Counted from the first letter of the stretch, positions 1-16,642 are shown. The stretch is DNA of 64,000 nucleotides from an uncultured Dokdonella sp. (GCA_964390215.1 CAYMHF010000006.1:2509-66508); one strand, 5' to 3'. The notes: generated by a model not told the origin, from the letters alone. Program-made: numbers and translations.

Positions 1-58
1 GGTGCGGAATCGATCTGGGCCAAAGGCGTGTTCGGAAACTTCACTCTGACCTCGGTTT
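1..58. repeat. Intergenic repeat block B, copy 1 (truncated by window edge)
   Basis: Positions 1-38 match 1751-1788 at 35/38 nt; ends in CACTCTGACCTCGGTTT, similar to CACTTTGCCCCCGCTTT at 1791-1807. Confidence 0.85.
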
Positions 59-549
59 AGCCTTCTGTTTTGGAAGGGGCGATCAAGACTGGTCAGATCA
101 GAACTCCGAGGCTCTGCGGCAGTCGCCGAACCGGCGTCGGCATGACATCCGCCGAATTCCCCGCTGCTCATCTGCTGTCGGCAGCCGGAGAATTTGCACA
201 CCCGTGCTGATTCCAGTCGCCAGTATCCCGGCATATCCGGACGCGCGAGTGACTGCAGTGAACTTCCACGCCTTCGCGGCCGTATTCTTTGCCAGCGGAA
301 GTTCTCGCGTTGGGCATTGATTCCTTGGGGATTTTCGAATTTCCGGGGGCTGAATTCGCCTTTCCTCACGGTGGCCCGTTTCTTGCTGTGCAACAACGAG
401 TTGCTGTAAAGCTCGAAAAAGCTCGGGGTCTTGGCATCATGCCTCTCCAAACAGGGGTTAAATTGGAATGGCACTGACACCTTTTCCCGGGTACTTGCGG
501 GAATGGCCATAACAGAGTGACGTGGAGGCGAGACGGCCAGAGTTGGGCT

Positions 550-568
550 GAACTCCCGCCGGGAGTTC
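550..568. repeat. Perfect 8-bp hairpin upstream of the GGDEF gene
   Basis: GAACTCCC-GCC-GGGAGTTC; function unknown. Confidence 0.6.
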
Positions 569-604
569 GTAAATGGACGATCAGCTTGAACTTGGGGGTC
601 AGCA

Positions 605-1618
605 GTGGCCGATGGATCGAATACTCCGAGCGTGATGAAAGCCGATCATCCCCTGCGCGATCGTTATGATTTTCGCCCCAAGGCGACGTTCGGCGTCGCC
701 TTTACCGGCTTCCTCGCGCTCACGCCGTTTTCGATCAACCACATGCTGCAGGGCAATTTCACGCTGGCGGCGAGCTCGCTCGGCGTAATCCTGCTGCTTG
801 CCGCCAACGCGTTCGTCATAGCGCGCGGCCGCTATGTACCCATGCTCACCCTGTTGACCCTGGTTCCTACAATCACATTCGAACTGGTGATTGTGCTTCA
901 TCTTCAGGGAATCATTGGCGCACTCTGGTGTTATCCGTCATTGATCCTGTTCTACTTCATGCTACCCGAGCGGAAGGCTTGGATTGCCAATGGCGCGCTT
1001 TTGGCGCTGGTTGTTCCGCAATTCTGGTGGCTGCTCGACAACTCGATTGCGGCGCGACTGACGGCCACCCTGCTGACAGTGAGTGTCATGGCGGCGTTGT
1101 TCATACGGGTCATTTCGAATCAGCAGAAGCAACTTAAGTCGCAGGCGGTGACCGACTCCCTGACCGGTTTGCTCAACCGGATGCTGCTGCACGAAACGCT
1201 GGAACAGGCGACTGAGCTGGGCCGTCGCGGTGGCCTGCCAATGACGCTCCTTGCCATCGACGTTGATCATTTCAAGGATATCAATGACCAGTTGGGTCAC
1301 GCCATCGGTGACGACGTGCTTCGCGGCATCGCTGCGCTGATTCGCGATCGCATGCGCCGATCCGACCGCGTATTTCGAACCGGCGGCGAGGAATTCCTTG
1401 TCGTGTTGTTCAATACGCCGCTAGATCTGGCGCAGAGAGTGGCGCAGGATCTGATCAACGCTATCGGGTCAAGCCGGTTCGTTCCCGGGCGAGCGGTCAC
1501 GGCCAGCATCGGGATGGCGCAATGGGCAGCCGGTGAAAGCTACAGTGGCTGGCTCAAGCGCGCCGACGAGTGCCTCTATCAGGCCAAGACATCGGGCCGC
1601 AATCGGGCGGTTGGCTGA
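605..1618 (+). CDS. Membrane-bound diguanylate cyclase
   Basis: N-terminal TM helices; DSLTGLLNR, DVDHFKDINDQLGHAIGD, I-site RRSD five residues before GGEEF, KTSGRNR; start may be ATG 635. Confidence 0.92.
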   Translation: MADGSNTPSVMKADHPLRDRYDFRPKATFGVAFTGFLALTPFSINHMLQGNFTLAASSLGVILLLAANAFVIARGRYVPMLTLLTLVPTITFELVIVLHLQGIIGALWCYPSLILFYFMLPERKAWIANGALLALVVPQFWWLLDNSIAARLTATLLTVSVMAALFIRVISNQQKQLKSQAVTDSLTGLLNRMLLHETLEQATELGRRGGLPMTLLAIDVDHFKDINDQLGHAIGDDVLRGIAALIRDRMRRSDRVFRTGGEEFLVVLFNTPLDLAQRVAQDLINAIGSSRFVPGRAVTASIGMAQWAAGESYSGWLKRADECLYQAKTSGRNRAVG

Positions 1619-1667
1619 TGCAGAGCTATCAGTCAGATCCGCAAAATTGGGGCCATGGCCTAACCTT

Positions 1668-1807
1668 GCTTGCACTTCAGCTTGGCACGATTTCCGTGGG
1701 TGTCCGATCTTTGCTGGCCCCGCGTGGATCGATAGCTGCGCTTTGATACGGGTGCGGAATCGATCTGGGCCCAAGACGTGTCCGGAAATACACTTTGCCC
1801 CCGCTTT
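1668..1807. repeat. Composite intergenic repeat (block A 1668-1720 plus block B 1751-1807)
   Basis: Block A matches 2864-2916 at 43/53 nt; block B matches 1-58. Confidence 0.85.
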
Positions 1808-1930
1808 CGTCCCCCATGGATTGACGATGAGCGTCGACTGGTCGCATGCTCAGCGAACCATTCTGCGGGTTCCTCTGGCCTGCTGCGCAGCGAAGAATCC
1901 GCATCGTTTCACCCCAAACGAGGTCGTCAC

Positions 1931-2725
1931 ATGCGCATGAAATCTGGAATGTTTGGTTTGCAGGCCGTGGCAGCGACACTCTTGCTCACGTGCATGGGGG
2001 CGCAAGCCATCGGGGTCAATGGGATCAACGCCGGGATGCCCAACCGGATTTCGATGAACGTCACCGTGCCGAAGCAGACCCAGGGGGCGACGTTTGGCGA
2101 AAAAGTCGTTCAAGACGGGGTGGTGTCACCCAGCAAGCAGCCGGAGGGCAAGACGGGGCCAGGTGGCACGTCCACCATCACGATTGTCTGTGGAGCGCAG
2201 GGGTGCGGGTTGGCTTTTCCGGGCGGGCAAGGCGTACGTGTCGACTTTGACGGTACGTTGCTGGCACCACTCTCAGCCGCCAGCGTTGAAATAGTGCGCT
2301 CTGGCACCCTGGCCCAAGGCGCCTCTCTGCTTGGCGGCGCGCTGCCGGGCGGAGCAGTCATTTCCGCCGCGGTGTCTTCGGTATCGTCCCTGCCCGGGGG
2401 TGCGGGCGGCGGTGCGGCCGCGGCGAGTTATGCCAGGGCCGGACATGCTTCCACGTCGAACGAGCCCACGTTGCTGCGCAGCGAACGTCATGCTGATGGA
2501 GTCGTCGACGTGCTGGACTCGCTGGTGGATGGCAAATACTCCCTGACGGTCATGGTGGATGGCGCAACCAACGGCTCCGACGAGGCATCGGCGAGCTCCG
2601 CAAACAGGCCGGGGAAAGTCCGTGTGGGTAGAGTGGTGATCAAGTTCACCGTGGAGTCTGGGGTAATCATTCCCTTGTTCGAGGATGCAGGGAAAAGCGA
2701 AAGCAACCCGATGCCAGAATCCTGA
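1931..2725 (+). CDS. Exported hypothetical protein with Gly/Ala-rich hydrophobic segment
   Basis: GAGG before ATG 1931; signal-peptide-like N-terminus; segments PNRISMNVTVPKQTQGATFGEKV and GASLLGGALPGGAVISAAVSSVSSL. Confidence 0.75.
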   Translation: MRMKSGMFGLQAVAATLLLTCMGAQAIGVNGINAGMPNRISMNVTVPKQTQGATFGEKVVQDGVVSPSKQPEGKTGPGGTSTITIVCGAQGCGLAFPGGQGVRVDFDGTLLAPLSAASVEIVRSGTLAQGASLLGGALPGGAVISAAVSSVSSLPGGAGGGAAAASYARAGHASTSNEPTLLRSERHADGVVDVLDSLVDGKYSLTVMVDGATNGSDEASASSANRPGKVRVGRVVIKFTVESGVIIPLFEDAGKSESNPMPES

Positions 2726-2863
2726 TTGCAACGTCGGCTTGGCAGGCGCGGCGATCGCGACGCGGATTTCGGAAAAATGTGTTCGGTGCATGGCCTCCGA
2801 CGATCACGATTTCCGCAGGCCTGCGCGAAAGCAGGGACGAAAACAGACAAAACCAAAATGGGA

Positions 2864-2932
2864 GCTTGCTCTTCAGGCTGGCATGATTTCTGTGGGAGGC
2901 CGATCGTCGCTGACCCGAATGGCATTGGCCCC
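2864..2932. repeat. Intergenic repeat block A, copy 2, followed by GAATGGCA junction motif
   Basis: 43/53 identity to 1668-1720; GAATGGCATTGGCCCC (2917-2932) vs GAATGGCACTGACACC (466-481), 13/16. Confidence 0.8.
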
Positions 2933-3010
2933 GGCCTCGGATGGATCTTCGCCTGACCCGGGTTGCGCTCGTTGATCCAGCGGTTGAAAGCGTTGCACGA
3001 TTTCGATCGC

Positions 3011-3280
3011 CTAGATTTCCGGCCCGGCATCGCCCTCGATACGCTGCACGCGCTGGCGGTACTCGCGCACGTTGTCGCCACGAATGCGCGTCTCCTGCGT
3101 GCCTTTCACCTCGTCGACTTTCTGCTCCGAGCCGGTCACCGGCTTGGCATCGACGGCCGTTTCGCGCTCGAAGGCGTGCGATTTGTCGGTGTTGCGGTAG
3201 TACCGATACAGCAACCAATACAGCCCCGTTGCGCCGGCTGGGCCCATCGCAAGCAGCCATAGTCCGCCATCATCGCTCAT
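3011..3280 (-). CDS. Small single-TM hypothetical protein (89 aa)
   Basis: MSDDGGLWLLAMGPAGATGLYWLLYRYYRN; ATG overlaps the stop of the upstream gene (ATGA coupling). Confidence 0.8.
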   Translation of the reverse strand: MSDDGGLWLLAMGPAGATGLYWLLYRYYRNTDKSHAFERETAVDAKPVTGSEQKVDEVKGTQETRIRGDNVREYRQRVQRIEGDAGPEI

Positions 3281-4587
3281 GACGTGCTCCCAAGTATCCA
3301 GAGTGCAATCCCTTCGAGAAAGGTACCGACGGTGAGCGCGGCCGTGAGCAGCTTCCACTGCTGCACCGGCACGCTGCCCATGGTCTCGCCGGTGCGGCCG
3401 TTGACCGCAATGTAGTGCAGCATGCCGCCGTTGCCGCCGGTCTCGTGGTAGGAATAGAGCCAGACCGGCAGGTACATCGACACCCAGCGCGTGCCGTGGA
3501 CATTGAGGCCTTCCTGCTCCCAGCGCACACCGCGATCGTAGCGTTCCACCGATTCCTCGACCTGGGCGCGGGCGATCGACAGCAACTGCTCCTCCAGACG
3601 TGGGCGCAGCTGCTCCACATCCTGATTGCGTTTTTCCGTGCTGAAGCCCGCCAGGAAGGACGCATTCCACTTCACCGCGTTCTTGGTGTCGAATGGCAGG
3701 ATCGTGTTGATGATGTTGTTGGTGTTGGTGCGCGTATCCAGGTTGCCGCGTTCGCGGGAGGATTCCAGCGGCAGATCGTCCACGGTGAAATCCACGTGCC
3801 GTCGAACCTGGTACACATCGGCATCGTAGTAGGTCTTCTTCTTGTCGCCGCTGCCCCTCGTGTACTCGCGGGTCTTGATCTCGCCCTTGCCGGCGACGTC
3901 GGCACTCGCGTTGCCATCGACGATCATGTACGGCAGGTACACGCCGATGACGTTCTCGGGCGTGAATTCTTCCTTGAATTCCTTCAGTGCGAATAGCCGC
4001 CGCTTGTCCACGAACTGGCGAATGCGCGCGACCGCGTCGTCCTTCTTGATGTGGAAGGGCAGTACCGCGTCGGGCACCGCGCCGTTCGCCACCTGCTCGT
4101 TGACGCCGAAGACGTGGCGGCACCAGTGGCAGCGCGCCGTCATCGCGTTTTCGATATTGACCGTTACCTCGGCGCCGCAGCCGGTGCACTTGAAGCTCAT
4201 CAGACTGGCGGTGTCGGTGGCGATGTCCCGCGCGCCGGAGGCAATGATCGTGCCCTTGAGCTGGTCGATGCCTGCGCCGAGACCGAATTCCTCCTCGATG
4301 CGCATGCCCTGCCATTCGTTGCGGCAGTACAGGCAGATCAGCAGATCGCTGCCCGGCTTCTGCCGGATTTCGGTTGAGCCGCATTTCGGGCAGCGGTTGA
4401 GACCGTCCTTGAGCTCCTTGGCGGACGTGTCGATGGCGACCGGGTCGGGCGCCAGCAATTCATCGCGGATCGGTTCGGGCAGGGTGGCCGGATCGATGGG
4501 AAAACTGCCCGGCACGGGTGGCACGTCCTGAGGAGAACCAGGGCCGGTGTAGGGCGGCACTGGCGGCGGATTGTTGGCATTCGACAT
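3277..4587 (-). CDS. Multi-zinc-ribbon protein with C-terminal TM (YdjG-like)
   Basis: CPKC/CLYC/CTGC/CHWC pairs; GVYLPY, YLPVW and VNGRTGE motifs; C-terminal TM. Confidence 0.85.
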   Translation of the reverse strand: MSNANNPPPVPPYTGPGSPQDVPPVPGSFPIDPATLPEPIRDELLAPDPVAIDTSAKELKDGLNRCPKCGSTEIRQKPGSDLLICLYCRNEWQGMRIEEEFGLGAGIDQLKGTIIASGARDIATDTASLMSFKCTGCGAEVTVNIENAMTARCHWCRHVFGVNEQVANGAVPDAVLPFHIKKDDAVARIRQFVDKRRLFALKEFKEEFTPENVIGVYLPYMIVDGNASADVAGKGEIKTREYTRGSGDKKKTYYDADVYQVRRHVDFTVDDLPLESSRERGNLDTRTNTNNIINTILPFDTKNAVKWNASFLAGFSTEKRNQDVEQLRPRLEEQLLSIARAQVEESVERYDRGVRWEQEGLNVHGTRWVSMYLPVWLYSYHETGGNGGMLHYIAVNGRTGETMGSVPVQQWKLLTAALTVGTFLEGIALWILGSTS

Positions 4588-4608
4588 GGTCGTTCCGCGG
4601 TTGGTGGC

Positions 4609-5760
4609 TTACAGACCCAGTGCCTTGGCTTTGGCCGTGTCGTAGTCGGCCTGCGTGATCAGGCCGAGATCGAGCATTTCCTTGGCCTTCTTCAATTTCG
4701 CGATCGGGTCTTCGGCGGCCGGCGCGGCCGGTGCAACCGGTTGCTGCAAGCTGCCAATGCCGCCCATCATGCCCGAGGCCATGCCCAGGCCCATCATGCC
4801 CGCCGCGCCGGTGTTTTCGCCGGCCGACTGCATGCCTTGTGCGACGCTGGCCTGCAGATTGGAATTGCCACGCGCACCCGACAGCGCGTCGGCGCGTTGC
4901 ACGGTCTTGAGCAGTTCGCGCGTGTTTGCGTCGTACTCGATGGAAACGATGGCGGTCTTGACGATGGCCAGGCCACGATCGGACTTCCACTGATAGGCAT
5001 TCTCCACCGCTTCGGACAGGCTCCTGGCAAAGCCGATCGAATCCTGCTGCAGCTTGGTAATGCGATTGCCCTTGCTCGGGTCGTTCGAGTACAGGCTGAA
5101 CGCCGGTGCGAGTGACCCCACCACTTCATTGAAGAGTTGGCTGGCGGCGGCATTGTCGATGTCGGTGAAATCGAAGACCTGTCCGGGCTGAAGATACTTG
5201 GCCGGCACGAAGTTCTTCACGAACAGGATCGGATCGACGATCTTCATCGTGTAGGAGCCGCGCGTTACCGCGCCGACCTGGGTGCCGAGGAAGCCGTCAT
5301 CCCAGTAGATTTCCGATTGCGTTCCGAAGCGGTTGTCCGGCAGTTCCTTCAGCGAGACAAAGAAAGCGGCCTGCTGCGAGCCCGGCTGGCCGCCGAACTT
5401 GAAACGCTCCCAGCTCTGCATGAGGAGCGAATCGACCAGACCGCCGCCCGAGAAGATCGACTTCGAGTTGAGGTCGTCCGATCGCCACTCGTACCCGCCA
5501 GGCTCGGCCGCGAAGCCGGTGATCGCGCCATCCTGGAACAGCAGCAACCCGTAACCTTCGGGAACGACGATCTTCGAACCATTGGTAATGATGTTCGAGG
5601 AGCTCTTTGTATTCGATCCGCGTCCGGCATTGGTGCCTTGTGGAACTGCAGCGAACAGTGCCGCCGTCCCCGCCAAACCAGCCGGAACCGTGTAGAAATC
5701 CTTCCACTGGTCGGCGAGTGCGCCGCCAATCGAACCCACCACTGCCTGAACAAGACCCAT
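4609..5760 (-). CDS. SPFH-domain protein with C-terminal SHOCT (YdjI-like)
   Basis: ADQWKDF, IITNGSKIVVPEG, ERFKFGG; C-terminal KLKKAKEMLDLGLITQADYDTAKAKAL; GGAGAG before ATG 5760. Confidence 0.88.
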   Translation of the reverse strand: MGLVQAVVGSIGGALADQWKDFYTVPAGLAGTAALFAAVPQGTNAGRGSNTKSSSNIITNGSKIVVPEGYGLLLFQDGAITGFAAEPGGYEWRSDDLNSKSIFSGGGLVDSLLMQSWERFKFGGQPGSQQAAFFVSLKELPDNRFGTQSEIYWDDGFLGTQVGAVTRGSYTMKIVDPILFVKNFVPAKYLQPGQVFDFTDIDNAAASQLFNEVVGSLAPAFSLYSNDPSKGNRITKLQQDSIGFARSLSEAVENAYQWKSDRGLAIVKTAIVSIEYDANTRELLKTVQRADALSGARGNSNLQASVAQGMQSAGENTGAAGMMGLGMASGMMGGIGSLQQPVAPAAPAAEDPIAKLKKAKEMLDLGLITQADYDTAKAKALGL

Positions 5761-6116
5761 GACATCTCTCCGCGATTCGTGGCTGGGCACCGCGCCCACC
5801 ATGCCGGGCGCACTATACATTCCCTGACAAAAACAGGGGCAGTCGCCTCGATGTCTGGCGCAAGGGGAATGGCGGCAACTTACGGCCTTGACTGCCGGAA
5901 CGCCGACAATTTCTGGCGGGCAATGGGTCGCCGGAATCGTTGCCGTGCGGGTTTTGTGCGGATGCAAGCATGGGTTTGTCTTCTGATTCTTGCAGCCGTC
6001 GAGGCTGGCGCGGACTGGATCAGTTGCGAACCCTCCCTGGGCAGTGAATGCGCATGAATCGGCCGCAGCCAGCGAGTATAGTTGAGCGCAACATGGCCAC
6101 CTTTGGATAAAGCGCG

Positions 6117-6860
6117 ATGCAACGCATGCTGACTATCGTGATCTGCCTTCTCTCCGCAGTCGTGACCGTTTTTCCGGCTGCCGTCAGCGCAAAGCCGGTA
6201 TCGCCGGTATTGCCACTGACCGCACGGGTCGAGGGCCGTGGCTATGCGGATCTGAGCGCGGATTGGTGGAAATGGGCCTTCGCCCAGCTAATTCCACCTT
6301 ACAAGGATCCGGATGGTCGCCTCTGCGACGTCGGCCAGGCTGGCCCGGTCTGGTTCCTGGCAGGTACCGACGGCAGCTTCGATGCCAAGCGCGAATGTGT
6401 CGTGCCGAAGGGCAAGTATCTGTTCCTTCCGGTCATCAATCTGATCCAGCATTCGCCGAGAACCCGGGACAAGAATCGAATTCCAAGCTGCAAGGAAATG
6501 CAGGACGGCACGGCAGTCATCAACGACAATCTCGTCAGCGCGATCGTTTTCATCGACGACGTCCAGGTCGATAAGGTCATGCGGTTCAGGGTGCGCAGCA
6601 AGGGCTGCTTCCAGCTGTTTGCCGATGAGCCCAACGACGACAGCAACCAGAAAATCATGGCGGCGAGTGATGGCTACTGGCTGCTGATCGCGCCATTGGC
6701 CGGGGGCCGACACACGATTCGCGTCGGCGCCAACTACGGTTCAAAGGAAGTGGCCTACGGACACATGATCCAGAATTTCGAATATGAGATTTGGGTTGGA
6801 GGCGAGGGGCGCGTCACCTTCGTTTCGCCCGTGCCTGCGCGGCAATTTCTGGCGCCGTAG
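6117..6860 (+). CDS. Exported conserved hypothetical protein
   Basis: Signal peptide; LSADWWKWA, GPVWFLAGT and DGYWLLIAPL motifs of a recurrent uncharacterised family. Confidence 0.8.
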   Translation: MQRMLTIVICLLSAVVTVFPAAVSAKPVSPVLPLTARVEGRGYADLSADWWKWAFAQLIPPYKDPDGRLCDVGQAGPVWFLAGTDGSFDAKRECVVPKGKYLFLPVINLIQHSPRTRDKNRIPSCKEMQDGTAVINDNLVSAIVFIDDVQVDKVMRFRVRSKGCFQLFADEPNDDSNQKIMAASDGYWLLIAPLAGGRHTIRVGANYGSKEVAYGHMIQNFEYEIWVGGEGRVTFVSPVPARQFLAP

Positions 6861-7013
6861 TCGCTGTTTGTGCGAGAAGCGGGGCCAGTCGGCCTGCTGC
6901 CGTTTGCGAGTCGTCCCGGGGGCACCCCCCCCAGATTCTGGTTTGTGCAGGCGGCGAACACTGCAAGGCATGTGAGATAGTGGGTTATTCGCCATTCGCA
7001 GGTAACAGGATCG

Positions 7014-8639
7014 ATGCCAGCCGCCAAACGCCCCGTTGGAATGCTCGTGTCGCAGTTGGGTGCGCTGATGGCGCTACTGGCATCGCCACTGTGGGCCGCG
7101 GGTGCGTCGCTGCCTTCCTCGCCCGAGTCGTACTTGAGTCAGTCGGCACGCGTGCGCCAGTCGACCGATCGACCCTGGGCGCCTGAAGCGGGGCAGTTGG
7201 GCAATCTCCGACATCTGCAGATCACCGCGGCGGACTGCGTCGTGCGTGTCGTTTCCGGCAGCGAGAATCGCGTGTTTCCGGGTACGCGCGAGGTTATCGT
7301 GGTCGAGCGCTCGCGCGTGCTCGACGCCAATCCGAACGAGCAGCCGGCGCCGCGCGACGTGGTCCTGGCCACCGATCATGCTCAGGCCTGTCCGGGTCTC
7401 GGCTCGTGCGGCGTGTCGATCACGCCGGTGCGGCGGTCGTCGGACAATGTCGTCACGGGCGCGGCGTGCTTCACCGTGCAGCTCGCCACCGGGCACGATT
7501 TGCTGCTGGGTGGCGATGGTCTTTCCCTGCTTGTCGATCAGGTGCGCCAGCCGACGCTGCGGATCACACTCAATCCGAGTGCCGGCCTGCGCGTGTGGCT
7601 GGAGCAGGTCAACATCGGGCTGCTTTCGATCCACGCCAACGCGCCGGCGCGCGTGGGCGGCAGCGGCCAGGTTGATTTTCTGCAAGTGGGCAGCTCAGAC
7701 AGCGGAAGTGCGATGTTCCTTCAGGGTTTCCATGCGTCCCAAGTCGGTGTTTCGGCGACAACGACGGGTACCCAGTGGGCAATCCGCATCGATGCCGATA
7801 CCAAGGCGGGCTACTACCAGCCGGCGCGCGCGCCCGGAGCGGTTGCCAAACGATACCCTATCGAAATCGAAGGATCGATCAATCGCCTCGAGGTGCCGGT
7901 GGGTCAGGTGGATCCGCAGCCATTAAGTGAGGCCACGCGAGTCGCGACGCGTGCGCTGCGTGACGAGGTACTTCGGCGTGCAGGCCCAGCGCCGGTACTC
8001 CCGACTTCCGACTCGAGCTTGCCTTCGGCCACGGTCGCCGCAGAGGCGCTCGCACAGGATCCGAGCGAACGGGTCGCCGACGTCGTCGCACGGTATCTGC
8101 CGGCATCGATCCGCATCACCAAGGTTGCATTGTGGAAAAAGGGTGCGCGTCTTGAAGGCATGGCACCTGATCCTGCTTCGGCGCGTGAAGTCGCGCGTCT
8201 GCTCAATGAATCCGGCGAGTTCACCTATGTTGACGGCGGAAGCTCGCTACCCCGCGATGGCGGCCACAAGTTCTCCGTGCAACTGCGCTTCGCGTGCGAG
8301 ATTCCGGGTCAGCGCAGCGTATGTCCGGCCGGCGATCCGGCCGCATCAGGCGCCTACAGCGAGGTGCAGGTGCGTGGTGTGATCGACAACTTGCTAGGTC
8401 CGCTGGTGATCGTGCACGAAGTACGCCTGGACGGTGACAAGATTCATTTGAAAGCCGTCGCGCCAAACGAAGTGGAGGCCCGCCAAGCCTTGGAACGTCT
8501 GGGCCAGCGCAAGGATTTCATCCGCCTGTCGACGTCGATGCACGGACCCTCCGCCAGCGGCTCGTCCGTGAACATCAGCGCAGTACTGAACCTCTACTGC
8601 GCAATTCCGCCAAAGGCCGATGGCATTTGCATCCCTTGA
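7014..8639 (+). CDS. Exported hypothetical protein with two C-terminal PilN-like repeats
   Basis: 541-aa ORF with signal-like N-terminus (start may be 7041 or 7068); duplicated C-terminal domain, each copy ending in a Cys pair. Confidence 0.7.
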   Translation: MPAAKRPVGMLVSQLGALMALLASPLWAAGASLPSSPESYLSQSARVRQSTDRPWAPEAGQLGNLRHLQITAADCVVRVVSGSENRVFPGTREVIVVERSRVLDANPNEQPAPRDVVLATDHAQACPGLGSCGVSITPVRRSSDNVVTGAACFTVQLATGHDLLLGGDGLSLLVDQVRQPTLRITLNPSAGLRVWLEQVNIGLLSIHANAPARVGGSGQVDFLQVGSSDSGSAMFLQGFHASQVGVSATTTGTQWAIRIDADTKAGYYQPARAPGAVAKRYPIEIEGSINRLEVPVGQVDPQPLSEATRVATRALRDEVLRRAGPAPVLPTSDSSLPSATVAAEALAQDPSERVADVVARYLPASIRITKVALWKKGARLEGMAPDPASAREVARLLNESGEFTYVDGGSSLPRDGGHKFSVQLRFACEIPGQRSVCPAGDPAASGAYSEVQVRGVIDNLLGPLVIVHEVRLDGDKIHLKAVAPNEVEARQALERLGQRKDFIRLSTSMHGPSASGSSVNISAVLNLYCAIPPKADGICIP

Positions 8640-8747
8640 ACAACACCCGTGCAGAGTGCGGGTTTGGCATCGGAGTAGTGCGTGTTGAGGTTCGCGACCC
8701 GCAGTTCCACTGGCGAACCGCCAAAATGGAATTCACGGCTACTCCGC

Positions 8748-8776
8748 CCCCGATTTCCGTGACCCCGATTTCCGTG
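8748..8776. repeat. Tandem 14-mer overlapping a GGGGTCAC motif (minus strand)
   Basis: CCCCGATTTCCGTG at 8748-8761 and 8763-8776. Confidence 0.8.
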
Positions 8777-8854
8777 CGAATCGTGGGTGCTTTGCGCCTG
8801 ACAAGATCAGGAACCGGGTGAGACGCCCCGACTCCGTGGCCCCGATTCCAGGAC

Positions 8855-16072: not shown

Positions 16073-16480
16073 ATGATCAGCCAGACCTGCCTGCGGCATC
16101 CCCGCTGGCCGGCGATTGTGCTTGCCGTGGTGGCTTTGGTCATCGCCGGAATCCTGCTCCTGTTCGATCCGTTTTCCGCAACGAGTGTGCTGCCGCCGTG
16201 TTTCTTTCACGCGCTGACCCATCTGTATTGCCCGGGTTGCGGAACCACACGGGCGCTGCATGCGCTGCTGCATGGGAATCTCATGCTGGCGATGCAAATG
16301 AACCCGCTGGCCGTTGTCGCGCTTGCGCTGCTTCCATTGATACTTTGGAACAGTCCGAATCCGCATCGGGCATGGATAACCAGAGTGTCGGATGCACGAC
16401 TTTGGCTACCGCTGATCGTTGCCTTTGCCGTTTTGCGCAATCTGCCGTGGGAGCCATTCGTCTGGTTGGCGCCGGGCTAG
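16073..16480 (+). CDS. DUF2752 membrane protein
   Basis: PPCFFHALTHLYCPGCGTTRALHALLHG; terminal LRNLP. Confidence 0.9.
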   Translation: MISQTCLRHPRWPAIVLAVVALVIAGILLLFDPFSATSVLPPCFFHALTHLYCPGCGTTRALHALLHGNLMLAMQMNPLAVVALALLPLILWNSPNPHRAWITRVSDARLWLPLIVAFAVLRNLPWEPFVWLAPG

Positions 16481-16642
16481 TGTGGTGCCCCACAAATAAC
16501 GAGGCAAACTCGCTTGGTCTTCGGCCCCGATCCTGCGTTGCTGGTCGTCACCATAGCCCCACTATGCCTCTTCCTCGCGCCTTGTCTCGGAACCGAATCC
16601 GCGGCGCGATTCCACCCAGCTATTTGCGGGACACCACTCCAG
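16477..16642. mobile_element. MITE-like element (about 165 bp)
   Basis: Inverted termini 16482-16498 vs 16621-16637 (15/17); left flank CTAG contains the DUF2752 stop; right flank CCAG. Confidence 0.65.

Follow-up and report, generated by a model that had tools for sequence, protein, structure and literature searches.

What is shared by the spacers between unrelated genes at the left end of this stretch, and does it move genes? The stretch, called the window here, is 64,000 nucleotides (nt) of DNA from an uncultured Dokdonella sp., and its first 8,776 nt hold a series of apparently unrelated genes whose spacers re-use the same sequences. It corresponds to G000:C6:2509-66508, where G000 is a draft assembly of 3.99 Mb (61.7% G+C, 81 contigs), and the 2.5 kb to the left of the window were also analysed as locus L001. 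An earlier account made from the sequence alone (the sequence-only reading) proposed that the region is a gene-capture array. The spacer blocks are better explained as decayed copies of one small non-autonomous element that was formerly spread by a RAYT/TIRYT HUH tyrosine transposase, with a probability of roughly 0.8.

The sequence-only reading described two shared blocks, and both similarities hold. Block B (1-58 against 1751-1807) is identical at 35/38 of its first 38 positions, and block A (1668-1720 against 2864-2916) at 43/53, with the third copy recovered genome-wide by nhmmer (E 4.9e-5). They are not separate blocks but adjacent parts of one unit, as seen in C6:2426-2508, left of the window, where block A directly precedes block B. 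The unit occurs in the following copies, given in window coordinates unless a contig is named.

C6:2396-2573 (window -112 to 65), plus strand: copy 0, an element of ~175 nt that spans the window start
C6:2403-2420, outside the window: left arm of copy 0, 15/18 to the family consensus
36-53: right terminal inverted repeat of copy 0, minus-strand reading GAGGTCAGAGTGAAGTTT, 15/18 to the family consensus
1638-1812, plus strand: copy 1
~1640-1665: left arm of copy 1, barely recognisable (AAAATTGGGGCCATGG)
1785-1802: right arm of copy 1, minus-strand reading GGGGGCAAAGTGTATTTC, 13/18 to the family consensus
2864-2917, plus strand: copy 2, 54 nt from the left part of the spacer, matching copy 1 at 43/53
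8733-8752, plus strand: possible relic of a solo right arm (a weak assignment)
8748-8776: 15-nt tandem repeat CCCCGATTTCCGTGA, 1.9 units, directly after the possible solo arm (a weak assignment)

Copies 0 and 1 are 88% identical over 140 nt (C6:2426-2566 against window 1668-1807, E 1.6e-44). The arms of copy 0 are inverted and lie 141 nt apart. The similarity between copies 0 and 1 ends at the element boundaries and does not include the flanking genes. Copy 2 lacks the right half and has no recognisable arms. An nhmmer profile of copies 0 and 1 finds one further member in the genome, window 2864-2917, and the family has three members in the whole 3.99-Mb assembly, all within 5.5 kb. The unit was not found in 40 relatives or in a genus-wide search with 12 kb, and an exact 40-nt core has 0 matches in the genome contig database.

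A homologue outside the genus shows what the intact element looks like. In an order-wide search, a genome of another genus (G264; comparisons used one genome per species) matches the unit at 79% over 103 nt (E 7e-18). The G264 element is 144 nt long and places the homologous spacer between perfect 18-nt inverted repeats, GGGGTCAGAGTGCACTTT, in a context unrelated to the window locus. The consensus tip of the family arm, GGGGTCAG, fits the motif GGGGWSAS. Among 400 genomes, the long spacer of the window type is clear only in G264, as a single copy, and weak in G048. In G264 a truncated C-terminal fragment of an IS3-family transposase (L022 1223-1486) starts directly after the reiterated tail of the element.

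The arm itself is widespread. At <=2 mismatches it is present in 211/401 Rhodanobacteraceae genomes and 22/30 genera, with a reversed control near zero, and in 17/35 genomes of the genus of the window. Counts in relatives reach 46+43 (89) arms per genome. Exact dimers number 103 in the genome contig database and come mainly from Rhodanobacteraceae, with a few Lysobacteraceae genera and one Gemmatimonadales metagenome-assembled genome. The typical copy is a ~73-nt dimer made of (G)AAAACC, left arm, spacer, right arm and GGTTTT(C), and the triplets AAC and GTT are frequent just outside the arms. The spacers of 81 parsed dimers are 26-44 nt long and differ between copies even inside one genome.

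Two further properties of the arms were observed in these genomes. The arm occurs in the forms ...AGTGCACT... and ...AGTCGACT..., both of which contain perfect 8-nt palindromes (G023:C44, G022:C7, G578:C11, G589:C52). The form, GTGCAC or GTCGAC, is usually matched in both arms of one element. Since both forms are palindromic and the two arms usually agree, the palindrome at the centre seems to be preserved. In addition, the outer tip is tandemly reiterated 1-4 times just outside the arm in both this repeat type and a second one found in G000 (loci L059-L138; G000 C48:22880-23080; L022 1480-1520). The reiterated tips are AAAACCGGGGTC(AG) for one repeat type and AAAAAGGGGAC(C) for the other, and could be the footprint of repeated cutting and joining at the tip.

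The arm is tied to a transposase by the genes that it flanks. In three high-copy genomes (G578, G546 and G461) the best Y1_Tnp gene sits exactly in the interval of ~810 nt from a plus arm to a minus arm. A further ten genomes were searched with the G578 protein, and orthologues 64-95% identical in G589, G646, G022, G264 and G023 are likewise flanked by inverted arms. All 8 cognate genes found are flanked by arms, and Y1_Tnp is the sole gene that lies between a left and a right arm; no DDE transposase gene was seen between arms. More distant RAYTs (<=51% identical, four of them in G017) and a 56% copy in G646 are unflanked. The family shows clear specificity of arm to transposase. Both aligned Y1_Tnp proteins show an H-V-H motif and a later region with a conserved tyrosine. 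The link to RAYT-like HUH tyrosine transposases that the sequence-only reading drew from the GGGGWSAS motif is therefore borne out by a GGGGTCAG-type arm that flanks, in inverted orientation, a Y1_Tnp gene in 8 related genomes.

The transposase itself was not found in G000. The genome has two Y1_Tnp genes and neither is near the window, in agreement with the earlier statement that no intact transposase lies in the window. The best match to the cognate protein in G000 is only 43-45% identical and is a clear RAYT on contig C1 (C1:47871-48605, 243 aa). On both sides of this RAYT stands another inverted repeat, 37 nt long and starting AAAAGGGGACGGAGG (L002 1332-1368 and 2174-2210), which has 22 copies at <=3 mismatches clustered on C1, C12, C25, C42 and C48 and none on C6. 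The GGGGTCAG-type arms number 7 in G000 at <=3 mismatches, against 0 for the reversed pattern and a mean of 2.0 for shuffled patterns, and two of the 7 bracket copy 0. Lineages of the family have switched repeat type.

The window copies are decayed and their hairpin signal is lost. The arms carry 3-5 or more mismatches each, and the DNA fold of copy 0 has a z score of -1.2, no better than shuffled sequence, although its arms are still paired in the minimum-energy fold. In comparison, the G264 element has a z score of -6.1 and a typical 73-nt dimer -8.4. RNA folds of both strands of copies 0 and 1 are no better than shuffles, an Rfam search of C6:1-12000 gave no relevant match, and a promoter and terminator scan showed nothing notable and no promoter-like site. 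Copies 0 and 1 differ in 16/136 aligned columns, and these differences are unevenly placed. A run of 70 bases (window 1703-1772 against C6:2461-2530) is identical (permutation P 3e-5), and outside the run about 1/4 of positions differ. The G264 copy has differences inside the same 70-nt run. The identical core probably reflects later gene conversion between the two copies, which are 1.75 kb apart.

The history of the locus can be proposed from these properties. The element would consist of two inverted GGGGTCAG-type terminal repeats around a ~105-nt spacer, and was likely spread in the past by a RAYT/TIRYT transposase that G000 apparently no longer carries. Copying may have used single-stranded hairpin intermediates cut at the tip of the repeat, by analogy with IS200/IS605 and REPIN-RAYT systems. 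Two insertions of the element would have given the two full copies; separate insertions are favoured over a segmental duplication because the similarity of copies 0 and 1 stops at the element ends. Copy 2 would then have been shortened by a deletion that took most of a neighbouring gene, and the copies are now presumably inert.

Several points weigh against this explanation. The mechanism is borrowed by analogy from related systems. The long-spacer unit is no multi-copy family in its own right. Of copy 1 the left arm can hardly be recognised, and copy 2 is armless. The 70-nt core could also reflect a selected function rather than gene conversion. The protein query found no orthologue of the transposase in G660, G681 and G688, 3/5 of the further high-copy genomes, which are drafts of 120-460 contigs. 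Since the orthologue was not found in every repeat-rich genome, the association rests on the 8 genes found. Finally, G000 is in 81 contigs, and a cognate transposase may hide in unassembled repeats.

Whether the repeats also moved the genes beside them is a separate question and depends on the gene order at the locus. The genes face both directions and are as follows.

Start of contig C6, left of the window, 1.4 kb from copy 0: IS3-family transposase fragment
Left of the window: DUF4034 gene
605-1618, plus strand: GGDEF diguanylate cyclase gene, between copy 0 and copy 1
1931-2725, plus strand: orphan gene for a 264-aa predicted secreted protein, between copy 1 and copy 2
2949-2999, minus strand: 3'-end remnant of a 429-aa gene of the type in G003, its last 50 nt, 32 nt after copy 2
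3011-5760, minus strand: three-gene operon for an 89-aa membrane protein, a 436-aa zinc-ribbon protein and an SPFH/Band_7 + SHOCT protein
6117-6860 and 7014-8639: two more genes for secreted proteins

The sequence-only reading held that the region is a non-integron gene-capture array, in which an HUH tyrosine transposase processes junctions marked by GGGGWSAS repeats and cargo genes are inserted or shuffled. This is quite unlikely for the window, although one junction, beside the orphan gene, suits the idea. DNA specific to G000 extends over ~1630-2948. Its start is ~10 nt ahead of copy 1, whose left end is decayed; it holds the orphan gene and ends with the truncated copy 2. The orphan gene appears coding-like (G+C content at third codon positions 0.71) and has no Pfam match, and no homologue of its protein was found in 400 family genomes. 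The right end of this segment is nevertheless a deletion scar and not a clean junction. The G003 gene of 429 aa, whose product looks EAL-type by eye, lies with other DNA between the GGDEF gene and the operon (L016 6662-7951, minus strand). Since the last 50 nt of this gene stand beside the truncated copy 2 in the window, a deletion likely removed the right half of copy 2 together with most of the gene.

The neighbouring genes are conserved where the repeat is absent. DNA of the SPFH operon, whole or in part, is listed at 81-91% identity in 30/36 other genomes of the genus and serves as a syntenic anchor. The GGDEF gene is 87% identical in G003 and G047 and is a remnant in G046, 67 nt from the operon. 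The repeat is absent from these places, and in G003 and G046 the GGDEF gene and the operon are still adjacent or near each other. Beyond the right end of the operon G000 has 3 kb with two genes, against 1-1.7 kb in G004 and G024. The left junction of this variable segment (5843-8852) has no arm, and the possible solo arm lies 50-80 nt from its right junction. Only 3 of ~8 spacers bear the unit. As to a change of gene content exactly at the repeats, one junction lies within ~10 nt of copy 1, and the other variable junctions lack the repeat.

The motif evidence is also weaker than it appeared. The octamers reported at 595-602 (GGGGTCAG) and 8759-8766 (GTGACCCC) are present, but as a bare motif GGGGWSAS is not enriched in 1-8776, with 3 exact sites against 1.03 expected at the genome rate (P ~0.09 by a Poisson estimate), one of them intragenic at 5112. 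Genome-wide there are 468 sites (0.117 per kb), which is under the expectation from base composition. Among the sites cited earlier, only the one near 45 on the minus strand can be shown to be an arm tip, that of the right arm of copy 0. No arm accompanies those at 595, 474 and 6881, and the 8759 site is part of a tail similar to the tip reiterations of relatives. The tandem repeat reported around it (8748-8776) is real, but its period is 15 and not 14; its GACCCCGATTTC tail is the one that recurs behind the right arm in the G264 element. The arm tips in the window, GAGGTCAG and GGGGGCAA, are one or two mismatches from the GGGGWSAS-type consensus tip. A pattern proposed at 466 and 2917, GAATGGCAYTGRCMCC, is present at both sites, but it was derived from those two sites and is at chance level, as ~9 pairs of 16-mers agreeing at >=13/16 are expected in shuffled versions of the window spacers. 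The site at 466 is ordinary upstream DNA of the GGDEF gene and is conserved in G003. A further sequence, GATTTCCGTG, has 18 sites and is apparently recurrent, but on its own is uninformative.

Observations in favour of moved genes also come from other contigs, where the repeat of the RAYT that G000 does carry is found. At C12:34800-40200 (L194 2816-8148), a 5.3-kb insert separates two genes that are neighbours in G018, one for a pyridoxal-dependent decarboxylase and one for a beta-lactamase-family protein. The RAYT repeat stands in constant orientation at 4/4 internal junctions of the insert, a count without control for intergenic position. The segments of the insert are located at unlinked places in other species, and one two-gene segment in G016 occupies a site that is empty in G000. 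A similar mosaic at C25:14-33 kb contains both repeat types, a toxin-antitoxin-like pair and a RAYT 3'-end with an arm fragment, and has the RAYT repeat at several junctions. On C42 the repeat stands at a breakpoint relative to G003 and G016. If tip reiteration is what repeated cutting and joining might leave, it would point the same way.

Other observations argue against such shuffling. At two of the repeat sites on C42, G000 is collinear with G017, its closest relative. Most homologues of these segments in relatives lack flanking repeats (for one segment, 1/8 has them). Because the repeats lie between genes, some agreement with the limits of BLAST segments is to be expected in any case, and the transposase cognate to the window arms is missing from the genes found in G000. 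A working non-integron capture array in the window is thus unsupported, with two and a half decayed copies, no cognate transposase and conserved neighbours that lack the repeat. Overall the sequence-only reading is partly supported, being right about the HUH link and unsupported about capture in the window.

A broader version of the idea is that RAYT/TIRYT inverted repeats of Rhodanobacteraceae are junction sites where whole genes are excised and stacked into cassette-like arrays without an integron. This is unlikely. If it were true, gene stacking would have left its mark in the orphan gene between two repeat copies, the 4/4 junctions on C12, the C25 mosaic, the reiterated tips and the arrays of fragments from transposase ends.

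The fragments in question are ~120 nt long and consist of the last ~30 RAYT codons plus the right arm. One is found in G000 at C25:28308-28431, and the same type occurs five times within 2.7 kb in G001:C1:145501-148182 (L195 2500-5200), where the last adjoins a classical attC-like site. The 120-nt repeat was considered as an attC candidate and ruled out, as it is the 3' end of the RAYT gene plus the right arm. A 1.1-kb part of the C12 insert, segment C, was considered to be of IS110 type and was ruled out by its Pfam YgjP-like/WLM peptidase domain.

The decayed-element explanation also has to be weighed against one without any mobile origin, in which the copies are either left over from a segmental duplication at the locus or a duplicated leader or regulatory sequence that precedes the GGDEF gene and the orphan gene. 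The restriction of the family to 5.5 kb of the genome, the position of both full copies upstream of plus-strand genes and the identical 70-nt core all suit it. It is very unlikely, however, since the similarity stops at the element ends and excludes the flanking genes, copy 0 is bounded by inverted arms of a repeat found across the family, and a homologue with perfect arms lies in an unrelated context in another genus. The absence of a promoter-like site, of an Rfam match and of RNA folding better than shuffled sequence gives no sign of a leader or regulatory function either.

The chances are poorer still for a miniature inverted-repeat transposable element (MITE) derived from a DDE-type insertion sequence (IS) or a Tn3-family transposon, with no tie to a tyrosine transposase. 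Tn3-family ends begin with GGGG, as do the inverted repeats here. IS3-family transposase sequence is also near in both cases, as a gene 1.4 kb to the left here and as a fragment directly beside the G264 element. But in 8 genomes only a Y1_Tnp gene lies between the left and right arm, ~810 nt apart, with no DDE gene seen there, and the spacers of the dimers are hypervariable, unlike those of typical MITEs.

A separate, MITE-like repeat is also present in this part of the genome. It is a dispersed 162-nt sequence at window 16477-16638 (minus strand), at C6:986-1066 (L001) and at ~17 further sites in the genome. Its copies are 93-98% identical and have terminal inverted repeats of ~27 nt, and Rfam gave no match. 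One copy is interrupted in the middle by the IS3-family copy with which contig C6 begins, and its right 81 nt remain.

The last alternative, that the repeats are attC sites and the region an integron cassette array, is almost certainly wrong: G000 does encode an integron integrase (TIGR02249, 484 bits; C45:24875-25816, minus strand, contig end 26040), and the inverted arms surround a variable centre with AAC and GTT triplets often just outside, but the real attC of the genus is of a different, classical type (>=12 beside intI in G017) with one such site in the assembly, on C13, and none in the window, the arm clusters of G264 are far from intI and on its wrong side, the transposase gene is enclosed by one left and one right arm and not by two whole elements, and the window genes point both ways. 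No attC site came from a heuristic search for RYYYAAC ... GTTRRRY with paired arms. The integrase on C45 has attI-like direct repeats at the contig end with no cassette array assembled adjacent, and a search around these attI-like words found no attC. The classical attC-type site on C13 (C13:64694) adjoins a broken integrase fragment.

The decayed-element explanation adds a repeat family that occurs in >=22/30 sampled Rhodanobacteraceae genera and reaches some Lysobacteraceae. It clarifies an apparent cassette array as a few fossil hairpin repeats tied to a domesticated HUH transposase. The repeats could mark islands that are prone to rearrangement, and their clustering at mosaic junctions elsewhere in G000 offers a countable test of whether RAYT-type enzymes move host genes.

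No publication was found with a 15-nt part of the arm sequence, although the figures and additional files of Di Nocera et al. 2013 (PMC3733652) may list related repeats. A search on Rhodanobacter and RAYT likewise returned no publication on such repeats, as judged from titles and abstract openings. The text of Di Nocera et al. describes tyrosine-transposase genes flanked by long inverted repeats, called TIRtrons, with the transposase called TIRYT. GGGGWSAS is common to some of these terminal inverted repeats, whose moderately abundant families comprise single units, dimers and clusters; the largest such families in that text are in Stenotrophomonas maltophilia, of the same order as Rhodanobacteraceae. 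The motif named in the sequence-only reading as flanking RAYT-like genes is accordingly in print there.

The present family resembles TIRtrons in having a Y1/HUH gene flanked by long inverted repeats, with a tip, GGGGTCAG, that fits GGGGWSAS, and in having arms away from the gene as single units, dimers and clusters. It differs in that it belongs to Rhodanobacteraceae, a group not named in the text of PMC3733652, whose figures or additional files may list the repeat. The window copies also differ, as they are decayed, have an unusually long conserved spacer of ~105 nt and lack a transposase.

The integron arrays share some features. Their inverted arms also surround a variable centre, and elsewhere in G000 the repeats stand in one orientation between unrelated genes. 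The core of the repeat differs from the attC of the genus, however, no integrase is adjacent, and the enzyme is an HUH transposase rather than a tyrosine recombinase. Elements of the IS200/IS605 type (IS608, ISDra2) share the same kind of HUH/Y1 transposase (Pfam Y1_Tnp), and a single-strand 'peel and paste' model, with cleavage beside a hairpin, would apply by analogy. Unlike the present arms, the ends of such elements are not inverted repeats; the elements also carry their own gene and are multi-copy.

The REPIN-RAYT system (PMC3337134, PMC3116915) is similar in that two inverted repeats and a spacer form a hairpin, with conserved arms and differing spacers. In the account of Bertels and Rainey 2011 (PMC3337134), REPIN spacers all differ and still form hairpins, singlets are read as decaying remnants, and RAYTs are flanked by REPINs. 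A single-copy transposase flanked by the repeats is common to both systems. The arm variants of the present family also change together in both arms (the GTGCAC and GTCGAC forms). A classical repetitive extragenic palindrome (REP) is defined in PMC3733652 as a short palindrome that has the tetranucleotide GTAG (or CGTC) at one end. REPs of this kind are small imperfect palindromes with a GTAG head, and the classical GTAG type is ruled out here because the arms begin GGGGTC. Copy numbers are in the tens per genome rather than the hundreds, with 7 recognisable arms in G000. Taken together, the Rhodanobacteraceae repeat family with the GGGGTCAGAGTGCACTTT arm likely belongs to the TIRtron / REPIN-RAYT class, and in G000 it is represented by fossils only.

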